From the IMG/VR virus record IMGVR_UViG_3300044715_000653: a stretch of 64,000 nucleotides of DNA, one strand, 5' to 3'. Made by a program: the position numbers and the translations under genes. This DNA is from an uncultured virus (IMG/VR IMGVR_UViG_3300044715_000653) (Duplodnaviria > Heunggongvirae > Uroviricota > Caudoviricetes). This document shows, in pieces, positions 36,831-44,406 of the stretch (its first letter is position 1; each line of letters opens with the position of its first letter). The notes under the pieces are model-generated. The model was not told the origin of the DNA. It saw only the letters and a list, made by a program, of their open reading frames with translations, and made no database searches.

Positions 36831-37301
36831 TTATGCTGCTAATACGTGATGCAATCTATCAGCCGCGTAACTTGCGGCCCATGCGTTTGGTTTAACCATT
36901 GGGATAACATTGCATGTTCCGCGAATATAACCAATGGCCTGTTGAACTACACAGCTTGAACCGTGAGCTTCGTTTGGGTTGATGTCTAAGTGTACAGCAA
37001 CATCGCGCCCTTCTAATACTTCGTGTAGTTTTAAGTACAGTTCTGAAATTTTGTAAACTTCATTCATTAGGCGCATACTAGGACGATTACGTTTTTGGTC
37101 GTAGTCTACTTCCGTTGAACTTTCACCAAATATCTTACAGCCGTGTTTGCCGTCAATGTGGACAACCACAGCTAAAGTGTATTCAGCATGCCATTGTCCA
37201 TTTTTACGGAAACGTGTACTATCGCCACCAATGTAGATTTTTGTTTCTGTACTTTGTGCATTGATAAAATCACGTACTTCATCGAAATTCAGTTTTTTCA
37301 T
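36831..37301 (-). CDS. RNase H-like YkuK-family protein
   Basis: IYIGGDS, RLMNEV..., VHLDINP, KPNAWAASYAAD. Confidence 0.75.
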   Translation of the reverse strand: MKKLNFDEVRDFINAQSTETKIYIGGDSTRFRKNGQWHAEYTLAVVVHIDGKHGCKIFGESSTEVDYDQKRNRPSMRLMNEVYKISELYLKLHEVLEGRDVAVHLDINPNEAHGSSCVVQQAIGYIRGTCNVIPMVKPNAWAASYAADRLHHVLAA

Positions 37302-37327
37302 ATACTGCCCTTATATTGTATTTACTA

Positions 37328-37747
37328 CTAGACTAAATCCAAGTAATACATTAATTTATGTTTGACCATTAGGTTTGGGATACGGTATTTCTCTGTATCT
37401 CTAAATCCAATCATATGCCCTACTTCTGCCACCGCACCACTACGTGCTACACCCATATGGCAGTGTACCACTACATTCATACTTTGTTCCCATGCTTCTT
37501 TTAATGCTTCAGCAATACCCTTAGCATCGGCGTTGGTAATTGCCGCCTCATAGTAAAACTTATCGCTGTCACTTTCTTCTACATCTAAGAAGTAAAACTG
37601 ACGCACAGTACGGAATGCATACTTAGGTGTAGGAAATTCTGTACCAGGATCTACAATCTGTATTAGCATACTGTTAAAACCTGGGTCGTAGTGATATCCT
37701 TTGCGTACATCATCAAGACTAATATTTTCAATCCATGGTTTCATCAT
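37328..37747 (-). CDS. Cys-dependent (dual-specificity/PTP-like) phosphatase
   Basis: VVHCHMGVARSGA = HCxxGxxRS. Confidence 0.8.
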   Translation of the reverse strand: MMKPWIENISLDDVRKGYHYDPGFNSMLIQIVDPGTEFPTPKYAFRTVRQFYFLDVEESDSDKFYYEAAITNADAKGIAEALKEAWEQSMNVVVHCHMGVARSGAVAEVGHMIGFRDTEKYRIPNLMVKHKLMYYLDLV

Positions 37748-37986
37748 TCCTGTCCTCTCTTACGTAGTTCTTCTATTAGACCGCCATAGGCAAATGTATA
37801 CTGTTGTTCTAATCGTTCTAACATGTTAATACAACTTATGATGTGTGCTGTATCCATGTCACTGATCAATAAGATTTTGCGTGTTTTAGTTAACCATGTA
37901 GTACGATGAGTCTTACGATACTCTTTAAAGTCCGCATAACTAGGTGTACTTAATATGTCCCAGGCTAATTGTTGATCTTCAGTCAT
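37744..37986 (-). CDS. Hypothetical protein
   Basis: W.TK......ISDM.T.HI...INML motif; TTGACA-17-TATAAT promoter at 37993-38021. Confidence 0.65.
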   Translation of the reverse strand: MTEDQQLAWDILSTPSYADFKEYRKTHRTTWLTKTRKILLISDMDTAHIISCINMLERLEQQYTFAYGGLIEELRKRGQE

Positions 37987-38041
37987 GTGTATATTATACT
38001 ATCATTTTGTCAAACTGTCAATCTTACTGAGCAGTAATATT

Positions 38042-38118
38042 TGGCCGGCCCGGAGAGATTCGAACTCCCAACCTCAAGTTTCGAAGACTTGCTTTCTATC
38101 CAGTTGAATTACGGGCCG
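38042..38118 (-). tRNA. tRNA-Arg(UCG)
   Basis: Cloverleaf; loop CT-TCG-AA; encoded CCA. Confidence 0.9.
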
Positions 38119-38122
38119 TTAT

Positions 38123-38196
38123 TGGCAGGCCCACCTAGAATCGAACTAGGACTAACAGGATCAAAACCTGTTGTGCTACCACTACACCATGAGCCA
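38123..38196 (-). tRNA. tRNA-Gln(UUG)
   Basis: Cloverleaf; loop TT-TTG-AT; CCA. Confidence 0.9.
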
Positions 38197-38204
38197 ATTA
38201 AACT

Positions 38205-38322
38205 ATAAGGGAAAAGGGTTGGGAGTTATCCTCCCGGACGACCGAAGCCTTGAGCGTCCTCAAGTTTTAGCTGTAAATCCAGCTTACCATGTTGCGCATT
38301 ATTAAGAGGCGTGGCCGGTTCT
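38205..38322 (-). ncRNA. Candidate structured RNA between tRNA-Ser and tRNA-Gln
   Basis: GC-richer spacer with several hairpins and a possible pseudoknot. Confidence 0.45.
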
Positions 38323-38328
38323 GTTGTT

Positions 38329-38418
38329 TGGCGGAGAGTATAGGATTCGAACCTATGCTCCCATTACTGGGAGGACGGCTTAGCAAGCCGCTGCCTTCGA
38401 CCACTCGGCCAACTCTCC
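38329..38418 (-). tRNA. tRNA-Ser(GCU)
   Basis: Long variable arm, G73, CCA. Confidence 0.92.
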
Positions 38419-38472
38419 TAATTTCTTACTATACAACTATTATAACACCGTTTATCAACAGTGTCAAGTATT

Positions 38473-38560
38473 TGGCGGAAGTTAATCGCATCGAACGATT
38501 TACCATTCCTGGTAACTACAGTTTTCAAGACTGTGTGAGGAGCCGACCTCAGTAACTTCC
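38473..38560 (-). tRNA. tRNA-Ser(UGA), atypical 8/4-capable fold
   Basis: Loop CT-TGA-AA, long V arm, G73-CCA, long D stem with small loop. Confidence 0.75.
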
Positions 38561-38561
38561 T

Positions 38562-38637
38562 TGGTGCTTCAACCTGGACTCGAACCAGGGACCTAAGCGT
38601 TATCAACACTGTGCTCTACCAACTGAGCTATTGAAGC
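38562..38637 (-). tRNA. tRNA-Ile(GAU)
   Basis: Cloverleaf; TT-GAT-AA; CCA. Confidence 0.9.
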
Positions 38638-38645
38638 ATTTAATT

Positions 38646-38720
38646 TGGCTCCGAAGGGTGGGATCGAACCACCGACCAAGAGATTAACAGTCTCCTGCGC
38701 TACCGCTACGCTACTTCGGA
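38646..38720 (-). tRNA. tRNA-Asn(GUU)
   Basis: Cloverleaf; CT-GTT-AA; GCCA. Confidence 0.92.
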
Positions 38721-38725
38721 ATAAA

Positions 38726-38801
38726 TGGTGGAGGTGACAAGGATCGAACTTGCGACATCATGCTTGCAAAGCATGCGCTCTCCCAACTGAGCTACACCCC
38801 C
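38726..38801 (-). tRNA. tRNA-Ala(UGC)
   Basis: Cloverleaf; G3-U70; TT-TGC-AA; CCA. Confidence 0.92.
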
Positions 38802-39904
38802 GTATTTCTATTACTTAATAAGTTATGTAGGTCTGGCCATAACTCACTAAATTTTAATTCAGCTGTTTCCATGTTTTTAATAAATTTATAAAACTCTGCA
38901 ACTTGATTATCGTTGGGTTTTAAGTTATTATTAAAATAATCATCAAATGTATCTTTGTCCTGCTGATTCATAATTTCGTATGCTGGCTGAATCTTAGTTC
39001 TAATATGTTCAATTACCTGCACAGGAAATCTACGTAGATCTAATGCTGTAGGATCTTCTAAAAAATTTATAACATGCTGTATTTGTTGTTCTACACCAAA
39101 CTTTACTAAATCATTCATACTGTCTAAACTTAAAATGTTTAATACAGTGTGTATATCAATTGAATGATTTTGCGTTTGTTCTAATTCTTTAAGCATCAAT
39201 AAATTTTTAGTTAATTGATTCCAGCTTGCGCCTCTACGCACATATTCAAACTGTTGTCCTACATTTTCAAAACTCACGGACCACGATACATTTTTTCGTA
39301 ATGCTAATTTTTTAAACACTGGATTATTTTCTAAATCCATACTTAAATTAGTAATCATCTGACAGATAACATCTTCTGGTATTACATCAAGTAATTCCGC
39401 ACACTGCGGGATTAATAACGGTTCGCCACCAATAAATGCCACAACTCGCAGATGCTGTTGATTAGACTGCACATAATTGATAATATTAGTGTAGTAGTCT
39501 TTACGTTTAGTCAGTAGGGGTAAATTTAATTTTTTAGCCCACATGCTACTATCATTAGGGTTACAATAGATACAACTTAAATTACAAGCATTGCTCCAAC
39601 GTACGTCGAGTATTGCCGGACCGTGATGATCAATACCTAAGTCGCCGATGTTGGGACTCATAGTATTATGCCAAGAGCGTTCAGCCGCTAGCCCATTACG
39701 TTCACAAGTTCCGCAGTATGATGGTACTATATCATCGGCAATCTGTTGACGTAGCTGTTGCCATTTGGGTACATTTAATATATCTTCAATGTTATCATTG
39801 TTTATATTGCCAAATCCGTAGGTACCTGCACAACATGGTTTAACATCACCATTTGTAGCTATATGTAATCCTCTCCACGGAGCGGCGCAATAAAGATTTT
39901 TCAA
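38792..39904 (-). CDS. Radical SAM protein with N-terminal SPASM/twitch-like domain
   Basis: CAAPW...G.VKPCC..., NACNLSCIYC (CxxxCxxC), GGEPLL, YVR.GASW. Confidence 0.88.
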   Translation of the reverse strand: MKNLYCAAPWRGLHIATNGDVKPCCAGTYGFGNINNDNIEDILNVPKWQQLRQQIADDIVPSYCGTCERNGLAAERSWHNTMSPNIGDLGIDHHGPAILDVRWSNACNLSCIYCNPNDSSMWAKKLNLPLLTKRKDYYTNIINYVQSNQQHLRVVAFIGGEPLLIPQCAELLDVIPEDVICQMITNLSMDLENNPVFKKLALRKNVSWSVSFENVGQQFEYVRRGASWNQLTKNLLMLKELEQTQNHSIDIHTVLNILSLDSMNDLVKFGVEQQIQHVINFLEDPTALDLRRFPVQVIEHIRTKIQPAYEIMNQQDKDTFDDYFNNNLKPNDNQVAEFYKFIKNMETAELKFSELWPDLHNLLSNRNTGV

Positions 39905-39917
39905 TATGTATCCTTGT

Positions 39918-40129
39918 GTAAGTGTTCTGCTACCAGCACCACCTAGCCCAGAACTGAGTAGTTACCCTGTCCAGCTGTTATCTTATGGATATAACAACAA
40001 ATAACCCACGATACTTTCAAGGCTCCCGGCAATGGGACTTGTGGCATGGTCTAGACCATCGTGTGTGCCCTGGCGCTATGGAATTGCCAATTACCCACTT
40101 TCGATAAAGCGCAAAGTGTAAAGCTAGTG
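39918..40129 (-). ncRNA. Candidate large structured ncRNA (about 210 nt)
   Basis: No credible ORF; many nested helices and potential pseudoknots. Confidence 0.55.
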
Positions 40130-40131
40130 TT

Positions 40132-40205
40132 TGGAGCGGGATATCAGAATCGAACTGATGACAGAAGTTTGGAAAACTCCAGTTTTGCCATTAAACTAAT
40201 CCCGC
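40132..40205 (-). tRNA. tRNA-Gly(UCC)
   Basis: Cloverleaf; TT-TCC-AA; UCCA. Confidence 0.9.
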
Positions 40206-40215
40206 ATAAAACTTT

Positions 40216-40300
40216 TGGTGCCCCCGGAGAGACTCGAACTCTCAAGCCTTTCAGCACTGGCTTCTAAGACCAGCGTGTATACCAATTCCACCACAGAGGC
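40216..40300 (-). tRNA. tRNA-Leu(UAG)
   Basis: V arm; CT-TAG-AA; ACCA. Confidence 0.92.
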
Positions 40301-40307
40301 ATATTAC

Positions 40308-40382
40308 TGGTACAGCTACGGGGAATCGAACCCCGCTTGCCGGGATGAAAACCCGATGTCCTAACCGATAGACGATAGCTGC
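40308..40382 (-). tRNA. tRNA-Glu(UUC)
   Basis: Cloverleaf; TT-TTC-AT; CCA. Confidence 0.9.
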
Positions 40383-40392
40383 ATTTTAAAAC

Positions 40393-40477
40393 TGGTGCCG
40401 GCTGAGTGAATCGAACACTCTCTATCTTACGAAGCCTGATTACAAGTCAGGTGCAATCCCACTCTGCGCAAGCCGGC
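40393..40477 (-). tRNA. tRNA-Thr(UGU) with extended variable region
   Basis: CT-TGT-AA; C2-G71; about 14-nt variable region. Confidence 0.8.
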
Positions 40478-40488
40478 GGTTAAAACTT

Positions 40489-40650
40489 TTACTTACGTGC
40501 TTCTAATATTCTAATACGACTACGGATCTTTGCTTGATCCTTTTTCCTACTAGTCTTTTCTAACATGGTATTTAATTGTGTTAGGTTCAATGGACCTAAC
40601 CGTGGTTTACCTGTGCGTGTCTGCATTGGATTTGCTTTTTTCACTGCCAT
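40489..40650 (-). CDS. Small basic protein (53 aa)
   Basis: MAVKKANPMQTRTGKPRLGPLNLTQL...; AGGAG SD. Confidence 0.7.
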   Translation of the reverse strand: MAVKKANPMQTRTGKPRLGPLNLTQLNTMLEKTSRKKDQAKIRSRIRILEARK

Positions 40651-40666
40651 GTTACTTCTCCTGTGT

Positions 40667-40741
40667 TGGTTGCGCAGGAGGGATTCGAACCCCCGATCTT
40701 CAGCTTATGAGACTGATGAGTTGCCACTTCTCCACCGCGCT
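40667..40741 (-). tRNA. tRNA-Met(CAU), initiator-like
   Basis: 1:72 mismatch (A/A), fMet-type D arm, CT-CAT-AA. Confidence 0.85.
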
Positions 40742-40959
40742 ATAAAAGTTCTGCGGCCAGTACAGGCCTGTTATCATGTGCAGAATCATGACTGATTTCA
40801 ACGGTGGAGTTGCACCACAGGCATCAGCTACCCTTGGACGGTTTGCCGTACTCTCCTAACCTCGAATACATATTGTTACGGCTTTCTTCCATTTACTTAT
40901 TTGTTACTATCTATATAGTGTAGCATTTTTGATATTTTCTGTCAACCACTATTTGAAAC

Positions 40960-41033
40960 TGGCTCCGGTGGAGGGAATCGAACCCCCACTAACGGTTTTG
41001 GAGACCGTCGCACTGCCATTATACTACACCGGA
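40960..41033 (-). tRNA. tRNA-Trp(CCA)
   Basis: CT-CCA-AA; GCCA. Confidence 0.9.
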
Positions 41034-41039
41034 ATAACT

Positions 41040-41114
41040 TGGCGACCGATGAGAGAATCGAACTCTCGTAGCAGGATAGACAATCCCGTGTAATAACCAT
41101 TATACGAATCGGCC
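41040..41114 (-). tRNA. tRNA-Asp(GUC)
   Basis: TT-GTC-TA; GCCA. Confidence 0.9.
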
Positions 41115-41125
41115 TTAAAATTTGC

Positions 41126-41200
41126 TGGGTTGACTAATGGGGGTCGAACCCATAATGCAGGAATCACAATCCTGAGTGTTGCCGCTACACTATAGTCAAC
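41126..41200 (-). tRNA. tRNA-His(GUG)
   Basis: G-1:C73; TT-GTG-AT. Confidence 0.9.
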
Positions 41201-41202
41201 AT

Positions 41203-41278
41203 TGGTGGGACGAGTGGGCTACGATCCCACCACCTCGACGTTAAAAGCATCTTGCTCTTCCAAATGAGCTATCGTCCC
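41203..41278 (-). tRNA. tRNA-Lys(UUU)
   Basis: CT-TTT-AA; atypical T loop ATCGTAG; ACCA. Confidence 0.85.
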
Positions 41279-41283
41279 AAACC

Positions 41284-41367
41284 TGGTGGGTGATCTAGGA
41301 GTCGAACCTAGTTTCCAGAGGACACAGATTTACAGTCTGCTGCAGTCGCCAATGCTGCTCATCACCC
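41284..41367 (-). tRNA. tRNA-Tyr(GUA)
   Basis: CT-GTA-AA; V arm; ACCA. Confidence 0.9.
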
Positions 41368-41373
41368 GTTAAA

Positions 41374-41451
41374 TGGTCTCTCGTGTAGGATTCGAACCTA
41401 CGTTCTTCTTGCTCCCAAAGCAAGTGCCATACCAGACTAGGCGAACGAGAG
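41374..41451 (-). tRNA. tRNA-Pro(UGG)
   Basis: TT-TGG-GA; C1-G72; ACCA. Confidence 0.9.
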
Positions 41452-41506
41452 TTATAAAATAACTCCTAAGCTATCCCCGTAGGCAATAGATAGGAGCCGT
41501 GTTAAA

Positions 41507-41588
41507 TTGTAGACTGGGAATCGAACCCAACAAGTTGCGATCTTGACCTAGCATGGCTAGACTCCTGACCCAACAGGACTATCCACAA
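41507..41588 (-). ncRNA. tRNA-like element (no CCA, aberrant CAT-containing loop)
   Basis: 7-bp acceptor TTGTGGA/TCTACAA, T arm TTGGG-TTCGATT-CCCAG, 5-bp D stem, V arm. Confidence 0.55.
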
Positions 41589-41614
41589 ACTGTTAACGCA
41601 CTCATATGAATGCG

Positions 41615-41800
41615 TATAATAAAGCACACTAATTACTCGCCTAAGACATAGTCCACGTTGCATGGGACCTAGTTGCCGATTAATGCACTTTATTATAACA
41701 AGTATTTTCTGTTCACAAAAGAACATGCCATCCACTTGTCCGCCCATTTGCCTAGTTAACGTGCAGGCTGCGATCTCGTTTCGCGTAACACGTACTGCTA
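41615..41800 (-). ncRNA. Candidate structured RNA(s) at the head of the tRNA block
   Basis: 19-bp closing stem TATAATAAAGTGCATTAAT/ATTAGTGTGCTTTATTATA plus upstream GC-rich hairpins. Confidence 0.45.
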
Positions 41801-41929
41801 CTACTTAGAAAGTTTCTTTAAAAGATTAGCATTTTCTGTTAATAATTTTGTTACTCTTTCTAATTTTTGTTCTAATATCACTATCCGTTGTTCCGGAGTC
41901 GGCGTTTGAACAATTTGTTTTTTATCCAT
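41801..41929 (-). CDS. Small coiled-coil peptide (42 aa)
   Basis: MDKKQIVQTPTPEQRIVILEQKLERVTKLLTENANLLKKLSK; AAGGAG SD right after the terminator. Confidence 0.55.
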   Translation of the reverse strand: MDKKQIVQTPTPEQRIVILEQKLERVTKLLTENANLLKKLSK

Positions 41930-41941
41930 CTTCGGCTCCTT

Positions 41942-41980
41942 AAAAACAAAAAACCCTAGTAACATTTCTGCTCTAGGGTT
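41942..41980 (-). terminator. Intrinsic terminator (attenuator) upstream of the tRNA block
   Basis: AACCCTAG-AGCA-GAAA-TGTT-A-CTAGGGTT followed by TTTTGTTTTT. Confidence 0.85.
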
Positions 41981-42017
41981 CTTAATTAAAATTCACTGTT
42001 ATATTATTATATAAACT

Positions 42018-42149
42018 CTAATTAAGATCCCCATAGATACTATTCGGTGTGCGATCATTGCCTAATGTCTCAATCGCTGACCAATAAGACATCGTGGCAA
42101 GTGCTGACACTTGTTTCGATATATTAAATTGATGTAGCTGGTTAAACAT
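42018..42149 (-). CDS. Putative attenuator leader peptide (43 aa)
   Basis: MFNQLHQFNISKQVSALATMSYWSAIETLGNDRTPNSIYGDLN; AAGGA upstream; 3' end complementary to the terminator 5' arm. Confidence 0.65.
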   Translation of the reverse strand: MFNQLHQFNISKQVSALATMSYWSAIETLGNDRTPNSIYGDLN

Positions 42150-42192
42150 TTTGCTTTCGCTTTCCTTTAATTAATTTATTACTATAACAACT

Positions 42193-42221
42193 AGTATACA
42201 GTCTATTTATTAGCCTGTCAA
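42193..42221 (-). promoter_or_regulatory. Sigma70 promoter with an embedded TAAATA late-type motif
   Basis: TTGACA-ggctaataaatagactg(17)-TATACT. Confidence 0.8.
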
Positions 42222-42264
42222 CCTCTTTGTTAATTTATTTATCTTTTATTTTTACGATACTAGT

Positions 42265-42462
42265 TTAATCGTCAATTACGTCAATACCAGCAGCACCAAG
42301 TTCAGTTACTGCTTCAACTGCGGCTTTTTTCTTTGGTGCACCCCAGAAGTTAGTTGTTGCTGTTTCACTTTGTACACCACGAGCTATTTGTTGTATCTGA
42401 CCACCGTTGGCTAAAAATTCTGCCATTACTTGTTCATAATCGTATTCATTTATATCTGACAT
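42265..42462 (-). CDS. Small hypothetical protein
   Basis: EFLANGG.IQ motif; AAGGA SD. Confidence 0.7.
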   Translation of the reverse strand: MSDINEYDYEQVMAEFLANGGQIQQIARGVQSETATTNFWGAPKKKAAVEAVTELGAAGIDVIDD

Positions 42463-42484
42463 CTTATTTCCTTTATTTAAATAT

Positions 42485-42559
42485 TGGTACCCCGGATTGG
42501 ATTCAAACCAATATAAGCCGCTTTAGAAGAACGGTGCCCATTCCTTGGACCACCGGGGT
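42485..42559 (-). tRNA. tRNA-Arg(UCU), divergent D and T loops
   Basis: CCGTT-CT-TCT-AA-AGCGG; ACCA. Confidence 0.75.
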
Positions 42560-42568
42560 AGTGTTGTT

Positions 42569-42645
42569 TGGTGGGCCTTACTGGACTTGAACCAGTGACA
42601 TTCCGATTATGAGTCGGACGCTCTAACCAACTGAGCTAAAGGCCC
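42569..42645 (-). tRNA. tRNA-Ile2/Met(CAU)
   Basis: GGGCCTTTAGCTCAG...CT-CAT-AA-TCGGA resembles a lysidine-type Ile2. Confidence 0.85.
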
Positions 42646-42652
42646 AAATAAA

Positions 42653-42922
42653 TTATTGCCTAATTTGTTTGCCGACTTTAGTTAAGTATTCTACACCACA
42701 GGTACCTGCTTCTACATCTAGTAGTGCCTGCACAGTGGGAAGATTTTCATATTTAGGTTGTGCTGTAGTTGATCCTGCGTTACGTGCGGCAATAACACGT
42801 GTTTTTGCAATTTCGTGGCCACGTACACCTGCGGCTAAGATTAACTGGAATCGATTACCACCAAATACGGCATCACAGTTATCAATGTTGTATTTTTCAA
42901 CCGACGCTATTTTTTTTGACAT
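42653..42922 (-). CDS. rpoZ: RNA polymerase omega subunit-like protein
   Basis: IDNC....GGNRFQLILAA..R..EI ... PTVQAL.DVEAG matches the RpoZ NRF.LV..AA.RAR.L ... KP.V.AL.EI..G pattern. Confidence 0.7.
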   Translation of the reverse strand: MSKKIASVEKYNIDNCDAVFGGNRFQLILAAGVRGHEIAKTRVIAARNAGSTTAQPKYENLPTVQALLDVEAGTCGVEYLTKVGKQIRQ

Positions 42923-42984
42923 AGTATGTACCTAAGTTGTTATTAAAATACTATTATAACACGACCAAGGATCGTTGTCAACAA

Positions 42985-44406
42985 TTAATCTGTAACTTTA
43001 AAACTTAATCCTGCCGACGAAGGACTTGCTGCTTCTGCTTTGGTCCAGAGTTGAACGTTGCCATCTACTTTTCCTGGCCATAACACAGATGCTGTAAGTT
43101 TTTTGCCAACTACACGAGTAAAGATTTGTACAAAATTCTCGTCTAATATTTCAAGAATGGTCTGTCTGAAATCTGGAATAGGCTCTGCCTTATTTACAAA
43201 GTCCACTAAGTCTTTGGCTGCACAGTAGAATAAGATTCCGCCCGGTGTAGCTCTTGCAGTAATAGTTCTAGTTTGTAATATTGTATTAAACTTCTCTGGT
43301 AACTGGGCTTTACCTTTGATGTTAGCATTGATAATTGAAATGTCTTCATTTGTAAAAGGCAATACCTGCTTATACATATCTGGAACATCCTGCGGATAGT
43401 ATTTTGCCAAGAAATTCCAAGCAACAAATGGCTGATTGATTGTAATTGAATTTTGTATCAACTGTAGAAATTCTACACCACTGCCAGGCTTGGCATCTTT
43501 TGTTAATCTGTCAGATATTGTTAATCCGCTTATAGCAGGTGCCGCGCCTACAGCTGATTTTCCAATGCCGCCTTTACTACTAATTAAAATTGTTTGTCCT
43601 GTTTGCGCATTTTGCACACCGTAACTGTCTGATAGTTGTGAATTTTGTTCGCCTGGGAATATCATAGTTAAGTTAGTTAAGTCAGGAGCATTTAGGAATG
43701 CTAAGAACTGATCTTTCTTAGGAAAATTAGCAACGCCGTGCGCCATTTCTAATATACCCAAATACTCGCCCGCATCAATTGCAATAACTTTTTGTGTTTT
43801 TTCATCGTACTCTTTAAGATCAGGGGTTATGCCTTGTGTAATTTCATATGCAGCTTTCTTAATAGCCGCGCCCAATGCACCTGCTTGATCTAATATTTGA
43901 TTAGTTTGAATAATATTTGCCAAGTCCCCTACTGAAATACCTTTGTTTGCATCAAGTGCTTTTTTAATTTCGTCTGCTGTAGTTACAGGTACACGATCTT
44001 TAGGCTTAGTACCTGCAGGGTGAATAGGATCAGCCGCAATACCAATGCCTATTGGTTGTACATTCACTGGTGTGCTTGCTTGACCTTTTCTAGTTTGTAG
44101 GTCTGCTTTTTCTAATTGGCTTACAGGAATAGAACCACCGCCTTCTAAATTTAATACCATACTTGGAATTTTAGCATGCGGATCTTGTAATCTAGCCTGT
44201 ATTGCGGCATCAACAATAGGTTTTAGTCGTTGATATTCGCCTACCGCAGGTATATATTGATTAGCGTCTGCACCTAATGCATCTACAAATGGTGTACGAT
44301 CTTTTAGTTTTTGTAAAAACGCCGCTGGACGCCAATCTAAATACTTTGGCACAAATAGTTCAGCTGGGGTTAGCTTTGCTTCTTTTAAAAATTCGCTTGC
44401 TCGCAT
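42985..44406 (-). CDS. Putative internal head protein (possible PD-(D/E)xK nuclease-like C-term)
   Basis: N-term MRASEFLKE resembles a capsid-targeting sequence; late motif upstream; LSDS...ISSKGG. Confidence 0.45.
   Translation of the reverse strand: MRASEFLKEAKLTPAELFVPKYLDWRPAAFLQKLKDRTPFVDALGADANQYIPAVGEYQRLKPIVDAAIQARLQDPHAKIPSMVLNLEGGGSIPVSQLEKADLQTRKGQASTPVNVQPIGIGIAADPIHPAGTKPKDRVPVTTADEIKKALDANKGISVGDLANIIQTNQILDQAGALGAAIKKAAYEITQGITPDLKEYDEKTQKVIAIDAGEYLGILEMAHGVANFPKKDQFLAFLNAPDLTNLTMIFPGEQNSQLSDSYGVQNAQTGQTILISSKGGIGKSAVGAAPAISGLTISDRLTKDAKPGSGVEFLQLIQNSITINQPFVAWNFLAKYYPQDVPDMYKQVLPFTNEDISIINANIKGKAQLPEKFNTILQTRTITARATPGGILFYCAAKDLVDFVNKAEPIPDFRQTILEILDENFVQIFTRVVGKKLTASVLWPGKVDGNVQLWTKAEAASPSSAGLSFKVTD

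Follow-up and report, generated by a model that had tools for sequence, protein, structure and literature searches.

Amino acid operons are subject to ribosome-mediated transcription attenuation through leader peptides such as trpL, hisL, leuL, thrL, ilvL, and pheL. The T-box riboswitch binds one uncharged tRNA directly, without any open reading frame (ORF), and erm and ABC-F resistance genes have leaders that are upstream ORFs sensing translation stress. Among the attenuators compared here, each responds to one amino acid or a small number of them, and the genes under control serve biosynthesis or resistance. In this study, we examine a leader module that precedes a tRNA array in a 64,000-nucleotide (nt) stretch of DNA from an uncultured tailed virus (IMG/VR record IMGVR_UViG_3300044715_000653), the whole of which is referred to as the window. 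A first-pass annotation, made from the letters of the window, had proposed a short ORF followed by a terminator as a sensor of the entire tRNA pool. On balance, we lean toward the view that the module is a ribosome-coupled transcription attenuator before the phage tRNA array, with a near-pangram leader, that is, one carrying nearly all amino acids, kept by selection.

Reading the sequence directly confirmed that all the described parts of the module are present, on the minus strand and at the positions originally given, including the strong promoter TTGACA-17-TATACT, the 43-codon ORF (ORF43, hereafter the leader; ATG at 42149 to TAG at 42020-42018), and the intrinsic terminator (Table 1). The latter reads AACCCUAGAGCA-GAAA-UGUU-A-CUAGGGUU followed by U6GU5; its bulged stem is absent from a simple terminator scan and is recovered by folding. 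The pairing suggested between GGGATCTTAATT (42031-42020) and AATTAAGAACCC (41987-41976) does hold at 11/12 positions, with one A.A mismatch, and its supposed inward extension brings the helix to 22 pairs (42033-42011 with 41996-41974). Folding 41930-42050 gives this helix at minimum energy (-31.4 kcal/mol, z -4.38), a value matched by 0/200 shuffles. The antiterminator had been described as mutually exclusive with the terminator, which is true of its base only. The two overlap by just 3-7 nt, and in variants of the window type, the upper 17 pairs are compatible with the terminator, so that only three to five basal pairs compete.

The module belongs to a family. With the neighboring upstream ORF (ORF65) as query, 24 loci were retrieved, 23/24 of which carry the promoter, leader, and hairpin, at 70-100% nucleotide identity over this module. 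A further 34 viral and 15 metagenome loci came from profile searches based on the leader peptide, and narrower profiles built from distant members added 19 and 2 more, which form a second, deep clade. Altogether, there are 43 distinct versions of the leader and switch, 26 in the close clade and 17 in the distant one, both from uncultured jumbo-type myophages. Protein searches gave 35 clusters and 30 small representatives (50% identity) whose best available name is 'hypothetical protein'; three long, low-complexity repeat proteins (P0036, P0049, and P0058) were excluded from the representatives before all counts. No PHROG or Pfam match was found for the leader (Pfam at E up to 1, including no Tna_leader), nor any Atlas lead. 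Profile matches in the PDB, to the stretch FTAYWSALESL of the antiviral defence protein ApeA (9hxm_A, against the leader core at 42068-42095; E 0.51) and to VapC20 (E 1.5), are at chance level and were not used. A tRNA array lies downstream in 17/17 loci with enough downstream DNA, and in 19/22 and 17/19 loci of later sets; of the five misses, four have too little downstream DNA, and L104 has no tRNA within 1.5 kb. In a separate lineage-specific observation, the contigs of L034, L035, L068, and L069 end at the same base inside the stop-codon hairpin, probably as a result of assembly breaks at the inverted repeat.

Across both clades, the layout is conserved and accompanied by covariation, as the proposal had anticipated for related phages. 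All 26 + 17 variants have the hairpin and the U-run, and the stop codon always lies inside a structure whose basal GGG pairs with the CCC of the terminator. The close clade has arrived at five sequence solutions, in each of which a G-run close to the ORF end is paired to the C-run at the start of the terminator. When the 26 variants are laid against the antiterminator in register, 344/384 cells are paired, versus 103-250 with the partner slid. In alignment A3, 94.4% of cells are paired, a level that 0/500 shuffles reach, and four antiterminator pairs (15 cells) are changed on both sides. The covarying pairs beside GGG:CCC are UUC/GAA, UCC/GGA, and UUU/AAA. The distant clade uses a different helix, GGGGUCC with GGACCCC, which is paired in at least 16/17 variants at positions -3 to +3 and includes a compensatory case, GGGUCUU with AAGACCC. 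The basal six pairs of the terminator are intact in 156/156 cells (12 distinct sequences), and five of its pairs are compensatory. In four of the sequence types, the stop codon stands 8-9 nt past the last G.

State energies were computed on only the RNA that is outside the polymerase at the termination point. The terminator minus antiterminator difference ranges from -2.5 to +5.1 kcal/mol in the 26 variants of the close clade, with barriers of 3.6-8.2, and from -0.8 to +8.2 kcal/mol in the 17 variants of the distant clade, with barriers of 6.2-16.9; in the latter, the antiterminator is favored in 16/17 variants, by up to 8.2 kcal/mol. By this modeling, the two states are balanced or favor the antiterminator. 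Partition-function folds of five full leaders, again thermodynamic modeling, predict the proposed switch when folds with and without ribosome masking are compared. The probability of the terminator base is 0.02-0.46 without a ribosome, 0.01-0.61 with the Trp codon in the P site, and 0.95-0.98 with the stop codon in the A site.

From these features, the following course of events can be proposed. Host RNA polymerase would initiate at the consensus promoter, and a ribosome would translate the leader, which has 39-53 codons depending on the family member. The last codons and the stop occupy the 5' arm of the hairpin, whose basal GGG would otherwise pair with the CCC that opens the terminator. A ribosome at the end of the leader while the polymerase makes the terminator would cover this arm, so that the terminator folds and transcription stops. 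If the ribosome is late, held within roughly the first 35 codons, or absent, the antiterminator would form, and transcription would read through to a second small ORF (ORF42), a structured RNA (RNA X), and the tRNAs. The terminator is presumed to be regulated rather than merely leaky.

The comparison of relatives indicates that the leader frame is under constraint as a coding frame. It is open in 29/29 distinct DNA versions, and the other five frames are open in 0-2/29. All indels in the leader are multiples of three, the ATG and the Shine-Dalgarno (SD) sequence are retained, and in L034, where the start is shifted by 3 nt, the shift is matched by a 3-nt deletion. It is therefore probable, on this comparative ground, that the leader is translated. 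Its ends are variable, and its middle, S-Y-W-S-A-I-E ... D-R-x-P, is nearly invariant. The invariant core sits in a hairpin of 12 + 5 pairs within the ORF, which may serve as a pause or synchronizing hairpin. This hairpin does not pair with the antiterminator arm, apart from a weak GAUC pairing confined to variants of the window type. A search of the window for a second site that could pair with the core recovered only its own site, and no second copy of the core occurs in the window.

In terms of composition, the leader of the window has the 19 residue types (all except Cys) and 32 distinct codons ascribed to it, including three Ile, four Ser, and three Ala codons, and, as also noted at the outset, no run of a single codon. 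Its G-ending codons, described as many, number 11 (p 0.020), and its codon rarity gives p 0.04, by comparison with 20,000 random 43-codon windows from 48 long ORFs of the window. Against the same null, its diversity is only moderately unusual, with p 0.033 for distinct codons and p 0.073 for residue types.

The family as a whole presents a stronger case. Among 78 distinct trimmed peptides, 59 have 20 residue types, 18 have 19, and one has 18; once the distant clade is added, 94 distinct peptides (39-53 amino acids, aa) comprise 74 with 20 types, 19 with 19 (17 of them without Cys), and one with 18. The leader of the window lacks only Cys, which is present in most relatives. For random windows of 41-49 codons from real genes, the probability of 20 types is 0.003-0.03, and among six-frame ORFs of 39-52 aa in the window, 0/135 have them. 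When the family is reduced to representatives below 50% identity, 15/21 hold all 20 types, a count that 0/20,000 simulations with a fixed core reach, the expectation being 0.98 with phage proteome composition or 2.63 with the composition of the variable sites of the family. When residues are shuffled within alignment columns, all-20 representatives average 3.98, with at most 10 in 5,000 shuffles; with the distant clade included, the observed count is 17/24, and the shuffles average 4.64, with at most 13 in 3,000, although misaligned homologous residues can inflate such shuffles. Chance is rejected by three null models for the all-20 frequency. The rare residues move about. Cys occurs in 16 different alignment columns and is single in 55/78 peptides, His is never absent and is single in 72/78, and the positions of Cys, His, and Phe differ between lineages. 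If codons are grouped into 24 boxes (one for each of the 20 amino acids and one more each for split Leu, Ser, and Arg and for Ile-AUA), 29 ORFs cover 22-24/24 (null 18.0, standard deviation 2.0), with all 24 in eight of them, and distinct codons exceed the expectation for uniform random codons in 42/48 ORFs.

Completing such a leader needs every aminoacyl-tRNA, so that shortage of any one would raise read-through. It is plausible, and we advance this part more tentatively than the attenuator itself, that selection keeps the leader a pangram, with a single copy of every amino acid and almost all split codon boxes in about 45 codons, whereby one attenuator reports any aminoacyl-tRNA shortage and answers with phage tRNA genes. 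The idea that the leader samples the whole tRNA pool gains support at the family level, where 74/94 peptides have all 20 residues and the rare ones shift, but sits less well with the frozen core and with residues found only in the tail. As to what would bring about a shortage, anticodon nucleases may be one trigger.

Several observations weigh against the attenuator reading or narrow it. The core codons TAT TGG TCA GCG ATT GAG are fixed in 28-29/29 ORFs, and synonymous divergence is far lower in the leader than in ORF65, at 0/36 versus 17/33 in L029, 1/39 versus 14/38 in L031, and 0/38 versus 12/59 in L015. A core frozen at synonymous sites is not predicted for a pure codon sampler and points to an extra RNA or peptide function. 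In 31/59 all-20 peptides of the 78 set, the twentieth type comes only from the tail (Cys 21, His 5, Phe 4), and since a ribosome held in the tail is predicted to favor the terminator, shortage of such residues would not raise read-through; the base of the terminator already has a probability of 0.82-0.98 when the Pro35 codon occupies the P site. Because the members are related by descent and errors of alignment can inflate the column shuffle, the pangram statistics are not fully independent tests. Residues of the six tRNAs that follow are not enriched in the leader (8/43, compared with 23.5% genome-wide). Type C and the distant clade place the GGG 18-25 nt ahead of the stop, which is itself inside an inner hairpin, and there a ribosome at the stop would block the helix on steric grounds. 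In variants of the window type, with three to five competing pairs and low barriers, the effect could be a fixed leak. The SD-ATG distance of 13 nt is poor spacing. Other tRNA promoters do without a leader: the one at 38467 runs straight into tRNA-Ser, leaderless, and the one at 40945 leads to a non-coding RNA (ncRNA)-like stretch and tRNA-Met, with no copy of the leader. Finally, while the parts, their conservation and covariation, the predicted switch, and the all-20 property come directly from reading, comparing, and folding sequences, we infer translation, regulated termination, and a stress trigger from them.

A conserved core is also what would be expected if ORF43 were an ordinary gene for an early micro-protein, with a promoter of its own and a somewhat leaky terminator, the core peptide being the product, for example a host-takeover factor like its neighbors, and the hairpin only stabilizing the mRNA or tuning the terminator. 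The core amino acids are indeed conserved across 30 representatives at 50% identity, homology ending after the U-run in several relatives makes the module look self-contained, the neighboring small ORFs resemble RNA polymerase binders (SutA-like at 29.1 bits, omega-like at E 0.005), and the upper hairpin can coexist with the terminator. Such a gene would leave unexplained why 74/94 peptides have all 20 residues with wandering Cys, His, and Phe, why the GGG:CCC competition is kept in five sequence types and the distant clade, and why promoterless genes start right after the U-run and synonymous sites are frozen, for which reasons we regard it as unlikely. The residue statistics would be accommodated if the peptide were a completion reporter acting in trans, finished only when every aminoacyl-tRNA is available and damping, via its core, tRNA and ncRNA expression or some other process, with the terminator switch secondary. 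This would account for the invariant core and for selection on residue presence at any position, tail included (Cys in 16 columns), and it fits a neighborhood of small proteins resembling polymerase binders. Given that it has no known partner or target, that no family, fold, or Atlas lead was found for the peptide, and that it requires neither frozen synonymous sites nor conserved competing helices, we consider it quite unlikely.

The core could instead be a programmed ribosome-arrest or RNA-binding element for one signal, be it a metabolite, a factor, or a defence protein; where the ribosome is arrested would then set the choice, and the all-20 property would be secondary. The invariance of the core in both residues and nucleotides within a conserved hairpin speaks for this, as does DR.P, which ends 4-5 codons before the GGG, so that arrest there would border the switch; the spacing W-x3-[D/E]-x7-P also resembles that of the key residues of TnaC. 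Against it stand the lack of any Pfam match at E up to 1, Tna_leader included, PDB profile matches at chance level (E 0.51 and 1.5), the odd regulatory logic of an arrest at Pro35 that is predicted to favor termination, and the pangram statistics, which it does not explain; we give it little credence. Last, strong conserved secondary structure, frozen synonymous sites, and poor SD spacing would all be at home in a non-coding small RNA of about 240 nt whose open frame is incidental. It is very hard to reconcile with this that the leader frame is open in 29/29 versions versus 0-2/29 for the others, that indels are multiples of three, and that the shifted start of L034 has a compensating 3-nt deletion, and the residue-set statistics make sense only if the frame is read, so that we attach almost no weight to it.

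For the ribosome-coupled attenuator, what lies beyond the terminator is of direct concern. The downstream order, given as a small ORF, ncRNAs, and tRNAs, is confirmed and comprises ORF42, a structured RNA, and a tRNA-like insert, followed by the tRNAs Pro, Tyr, Lys, His, Asp, and Trp. A promoter scan found no promoter between the terminator and ORF42. In most variants of the distant clade, the place of ORF42 after the U-run is taken by another ORF with AAGGAG, and elsewhere RNA X follows at once. Judged from this arrangement, the genes after the U-run would be expected to need read-through. In several relatives, homology breaks off exactly where the U-run ends and starts again in RNA X, which implies that ORF42 is optional. 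RNA X itself, found in the window and in L012-L033, folds into a stem of 18 pairs plus several hairpins and shows some compensatory changes, and X-like sequence follows distant-clade terminators in L086, L099, L100, and L104; it may be the main regulated product. In the region 37000-44000, cmscan (Rfam, E up to 1) returned the tRNAs and chance-level matches only, with neither a T-box nor a family for RNA X. An extended -10 promoter, TGTTATAAT (~41700), was considered as an independent feed to the tRNAs; it falls inside the conserved 18-pair stem of RNA X and is thus probably structural rather than a promoter. The 142-nt insert, with a long variable arm and a loop resembling a CAU anticodon, is present in the window, in L016/L018, and in L021, and other relatives are without it; ARAGORN leaves the element uncalled in the window and calls the copy in L021 as tRNA-Met (83 nt).

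The claim that the leader governs the tRNAs from Pro onward needs a limit after Trp, where further promoters are located at 40945-40917 and 38467-38439. The leader can be the sole transcript source only for ORF42, RNA X, and the tRNAs Pro to Trp. The window contains 15 near-consensus promoters (TTGACA-N17-TATAMT, at most one mismatch), compared with 1.86 expected, and the phage appears to rely heavily on the host primary sigma factor. The initial transcribed motif ATAGTAAnAAAT has three exact matches, at 42174-42185, 40899-40910, and 38421-38432 on the minus strand, each directly after a promoter of the tRNA region, and GTTGT(T) stands before it at promoters 42221, 40945, and 38467. These may form a distinct class of stable-RNA promoters or share an element for 5' processing or regulation, and the motif shared with the tRNA/ncRNA promoters 40945 and 38467 places the leader promoter in the stable-RNA class. 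In relatives, the leader promoter is TTGACA-N17-TATA[AC]T, with a -10 of TA(C/T)AAT in most of the distant clade, and the A/T-rich block ahead of it may be UP-element-like. A mini-hairpin, GCGAAAGC, lies between the SD and the ATG of the leader, whose spacing is longer than at ORF42 and ORF65.

RNA-library contigs of a relative give weak hints of transcription. Those of X19/X20 (one sample) and X21 bridge the terminator, and a contig of run X22 starts at 42185; the stretch 42185-41960, from the predicted start to the terminator, is spanned by one contig. The RNA contigs of a relative also skip exactly the 41455-41596 insert. Such contigs are uninformative on transcript ends, strand, and level and may reflect DNA carry-over, so they count as weak evidence.

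Table 1. Coordinates of the leader module and of the downstream elements in the window, in transcription order
Feature	Position	Strand	Basis or remark
A/T-rich block, upstream of promoter	42222..42253	-	nearly identical across most relatives in alignment
Sigma-70-type promoter, TTGACA-17-TATACT	42193..42221	-	11/12 consensus positions
Initial transcribed motif, ATAGTAATAAAT	42174..42185	-	common to promoters 40945 and 38467
Shine-Dalgarno-like AAGGA, 13 nt before ATG	42163..42167	-	kept in alignments of relatives
Leader ORF, 43 codons (MFNQLHQFNISKQVSALATMSYWSAIETLGNDRTPNSIYGDLN)	42018..42149	-	member of a family of 39-53-codon ORFs
Hairpin within the ORF, 12 + 5 pairs; holds invariant 19 nt TATTGGTCAGCGATTGAGA (42086-42068)	42058..42100	-	folding, alignment
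Antiterminator 5' arm; last four sense codons and TAG stop	42011..42033	-	folding, conservation
Antiterminator 3' arm; final 7 nt (41980-41974) are the start of the terminator 5' arm	41974..41996	-	folding, conservation
Intrinsic terminator; bulged 12-pair hairpin, GAAA loop, U6GU5	41942..41980	-	folding, conservation
ORF42, 42 codons; AAGGAG begins directly after the terminator U-run	41801..41941	-	optional in relatives
Conserved structured RNA X, ~200 nt; adjoins the first tRNA in most relatives	41597..41798	-	
142-nt insert with class-II-like tRNA(CAU)-like element	41455..41596	-	some relatives only
tRNAs Pro(UGG), Tyr, Lys, His, Asp, Trp; array reached only by read-through	40960..41451	-	
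Next promoter of the same class; ends the stretch necessarily dependent on the leader promoter	40917..40945	-	

Additional elements were noted around the module, all on the minus strand. Upstream, ORF65 (65 aa, 42265-42462) scores 29.1 bits for the SutA RNA-polymerase-binding domain against a cut-off of 29.3, and an 89-aa ORF (42653-42922) has a weak omega/Rpb6 match (E 0.005); the two flank tRNA-Met and tRNA-Arg. Within the tRNA region, an ncRNA-like stretch of about 150 nt (40742-40900), with homologous sequence in L016, lies between promoter 40945 and tRNA-Met. Between tRNA-Met and tRNA-Thr is a very basic 53-aa ORF (MAVKKANPMQTRTGKPRLGP..., 40489-40650) without a family match, and a 370-aa radical-SAM gene (PHROG radical-SAM, 38792-39904) sits inside the tRNA array, in which relatives show a gap of similar size.

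The phage is an uncultured large myophage with a UvsX-like recombinase and a tail sheath that shares about 40% identity with its counterparts in PA5oct-like Pseudomonas jumbo phages; the window carries 20 tRNA genes. Most of the runs listed for it are metagenomes from lake water or fresh water. Deposited phage genomes include no close relative of it: INPHARED, searched in near and distant modes, gave 0 matches for the leader region and 0 for the neighboring 473-aa protein. The nearest record, G001, is a 100% identical fragment of 11.9 kb and as such uninformative on conservation; a search with the radical-SAM gene led only to the same fragment, and relatives reached via the 473-aa neighbor have neither tRNAs nor the leader nearby.

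Set against described systems, the locus most resembles the attenuators of amino acid operons, which are represented among the literature matches by PMC1183508 and PMC3082878. Both comprise a promoter, a short leader ORF, an antiterminator overlapping an intrinsic terminator, and the regulated genes, in both the stop codon is at the 5' arm of the antiterminator (in the phage, about 78 nt separate the stop from the U-run, as in trp), and in both a ribosome at the stop is predicted to bring about termination and a delayed one read-through. Unlike them, the phage leader has no run of codons for one amino acid and uses each amino acid about once, it precedes tRNAs and an ncRNA, and part of its peptide is strongly conserved. 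Nor was a region 1 that pairs with the antiterminator arm found in the phage leader, so absent translation predicts read-through, not super-attenuation. In its leader ORF, intrinsic terminator, and overlapping antiterminator, the layout matches that of amino-acid-operon attenuators, and it lacks their defining codon run.

Conceptually, the closest analogs would be upstream ORFs responsive to translation stress in general, among them toiL, which precedes topAI-yjhQ and is reported to have this role (PMC12121999). As with the leaders of erm and ABC-F genes, the likeness is that a short ORF reports stalling at various codons rather than the shortage of one amino acid. toiL reportedly acts through Rho and translation of the gene that it precedes, and the signal for erm leaders is a drug-bound ribosome; to our knowledge, no leader of this type has been reported to be selected for all residue types or to control tRNA genes. 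The T-box shares with the phage module a choice between terminator and antiterminator tied to tRNA status, but the latter has an ORF and no Rfam T-box match. Arrest peptides of the TnaC, SecM, and RAPP types recall the leader in having a conserved Trp, an acidic residue, and a Pro at TnaC-like spacing before a termination decision; they differ in that the leader has no family match, continues for 5-13 codons after its Pro, and is followed by an intrinsic terminator as the termination signal.

In the search results scanned, at the level of records rather than full texts, there was no attenuator of phage tRNA genes or of tRNA genes in general, and no leader described as holding all amino acids. 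If the proposed reading is correct, the module differs from known attenuators in that it controls tRNA genes, is viral, and senses the whole set of charged tRNAs via an all-20 leader. It would then offer a testable answer to when large phages express their tRNA sets, as well as a general, self-adjusting counter to codon mismatch and to host defences that cleave tRNA, which, together with phage tRNA counter-measures, are now being described (PMC10264068, PMC11555353, PMC12409363). The all-20 property is in its own right a sequence signature of a new and unexpected kind, searchable in other leaders.

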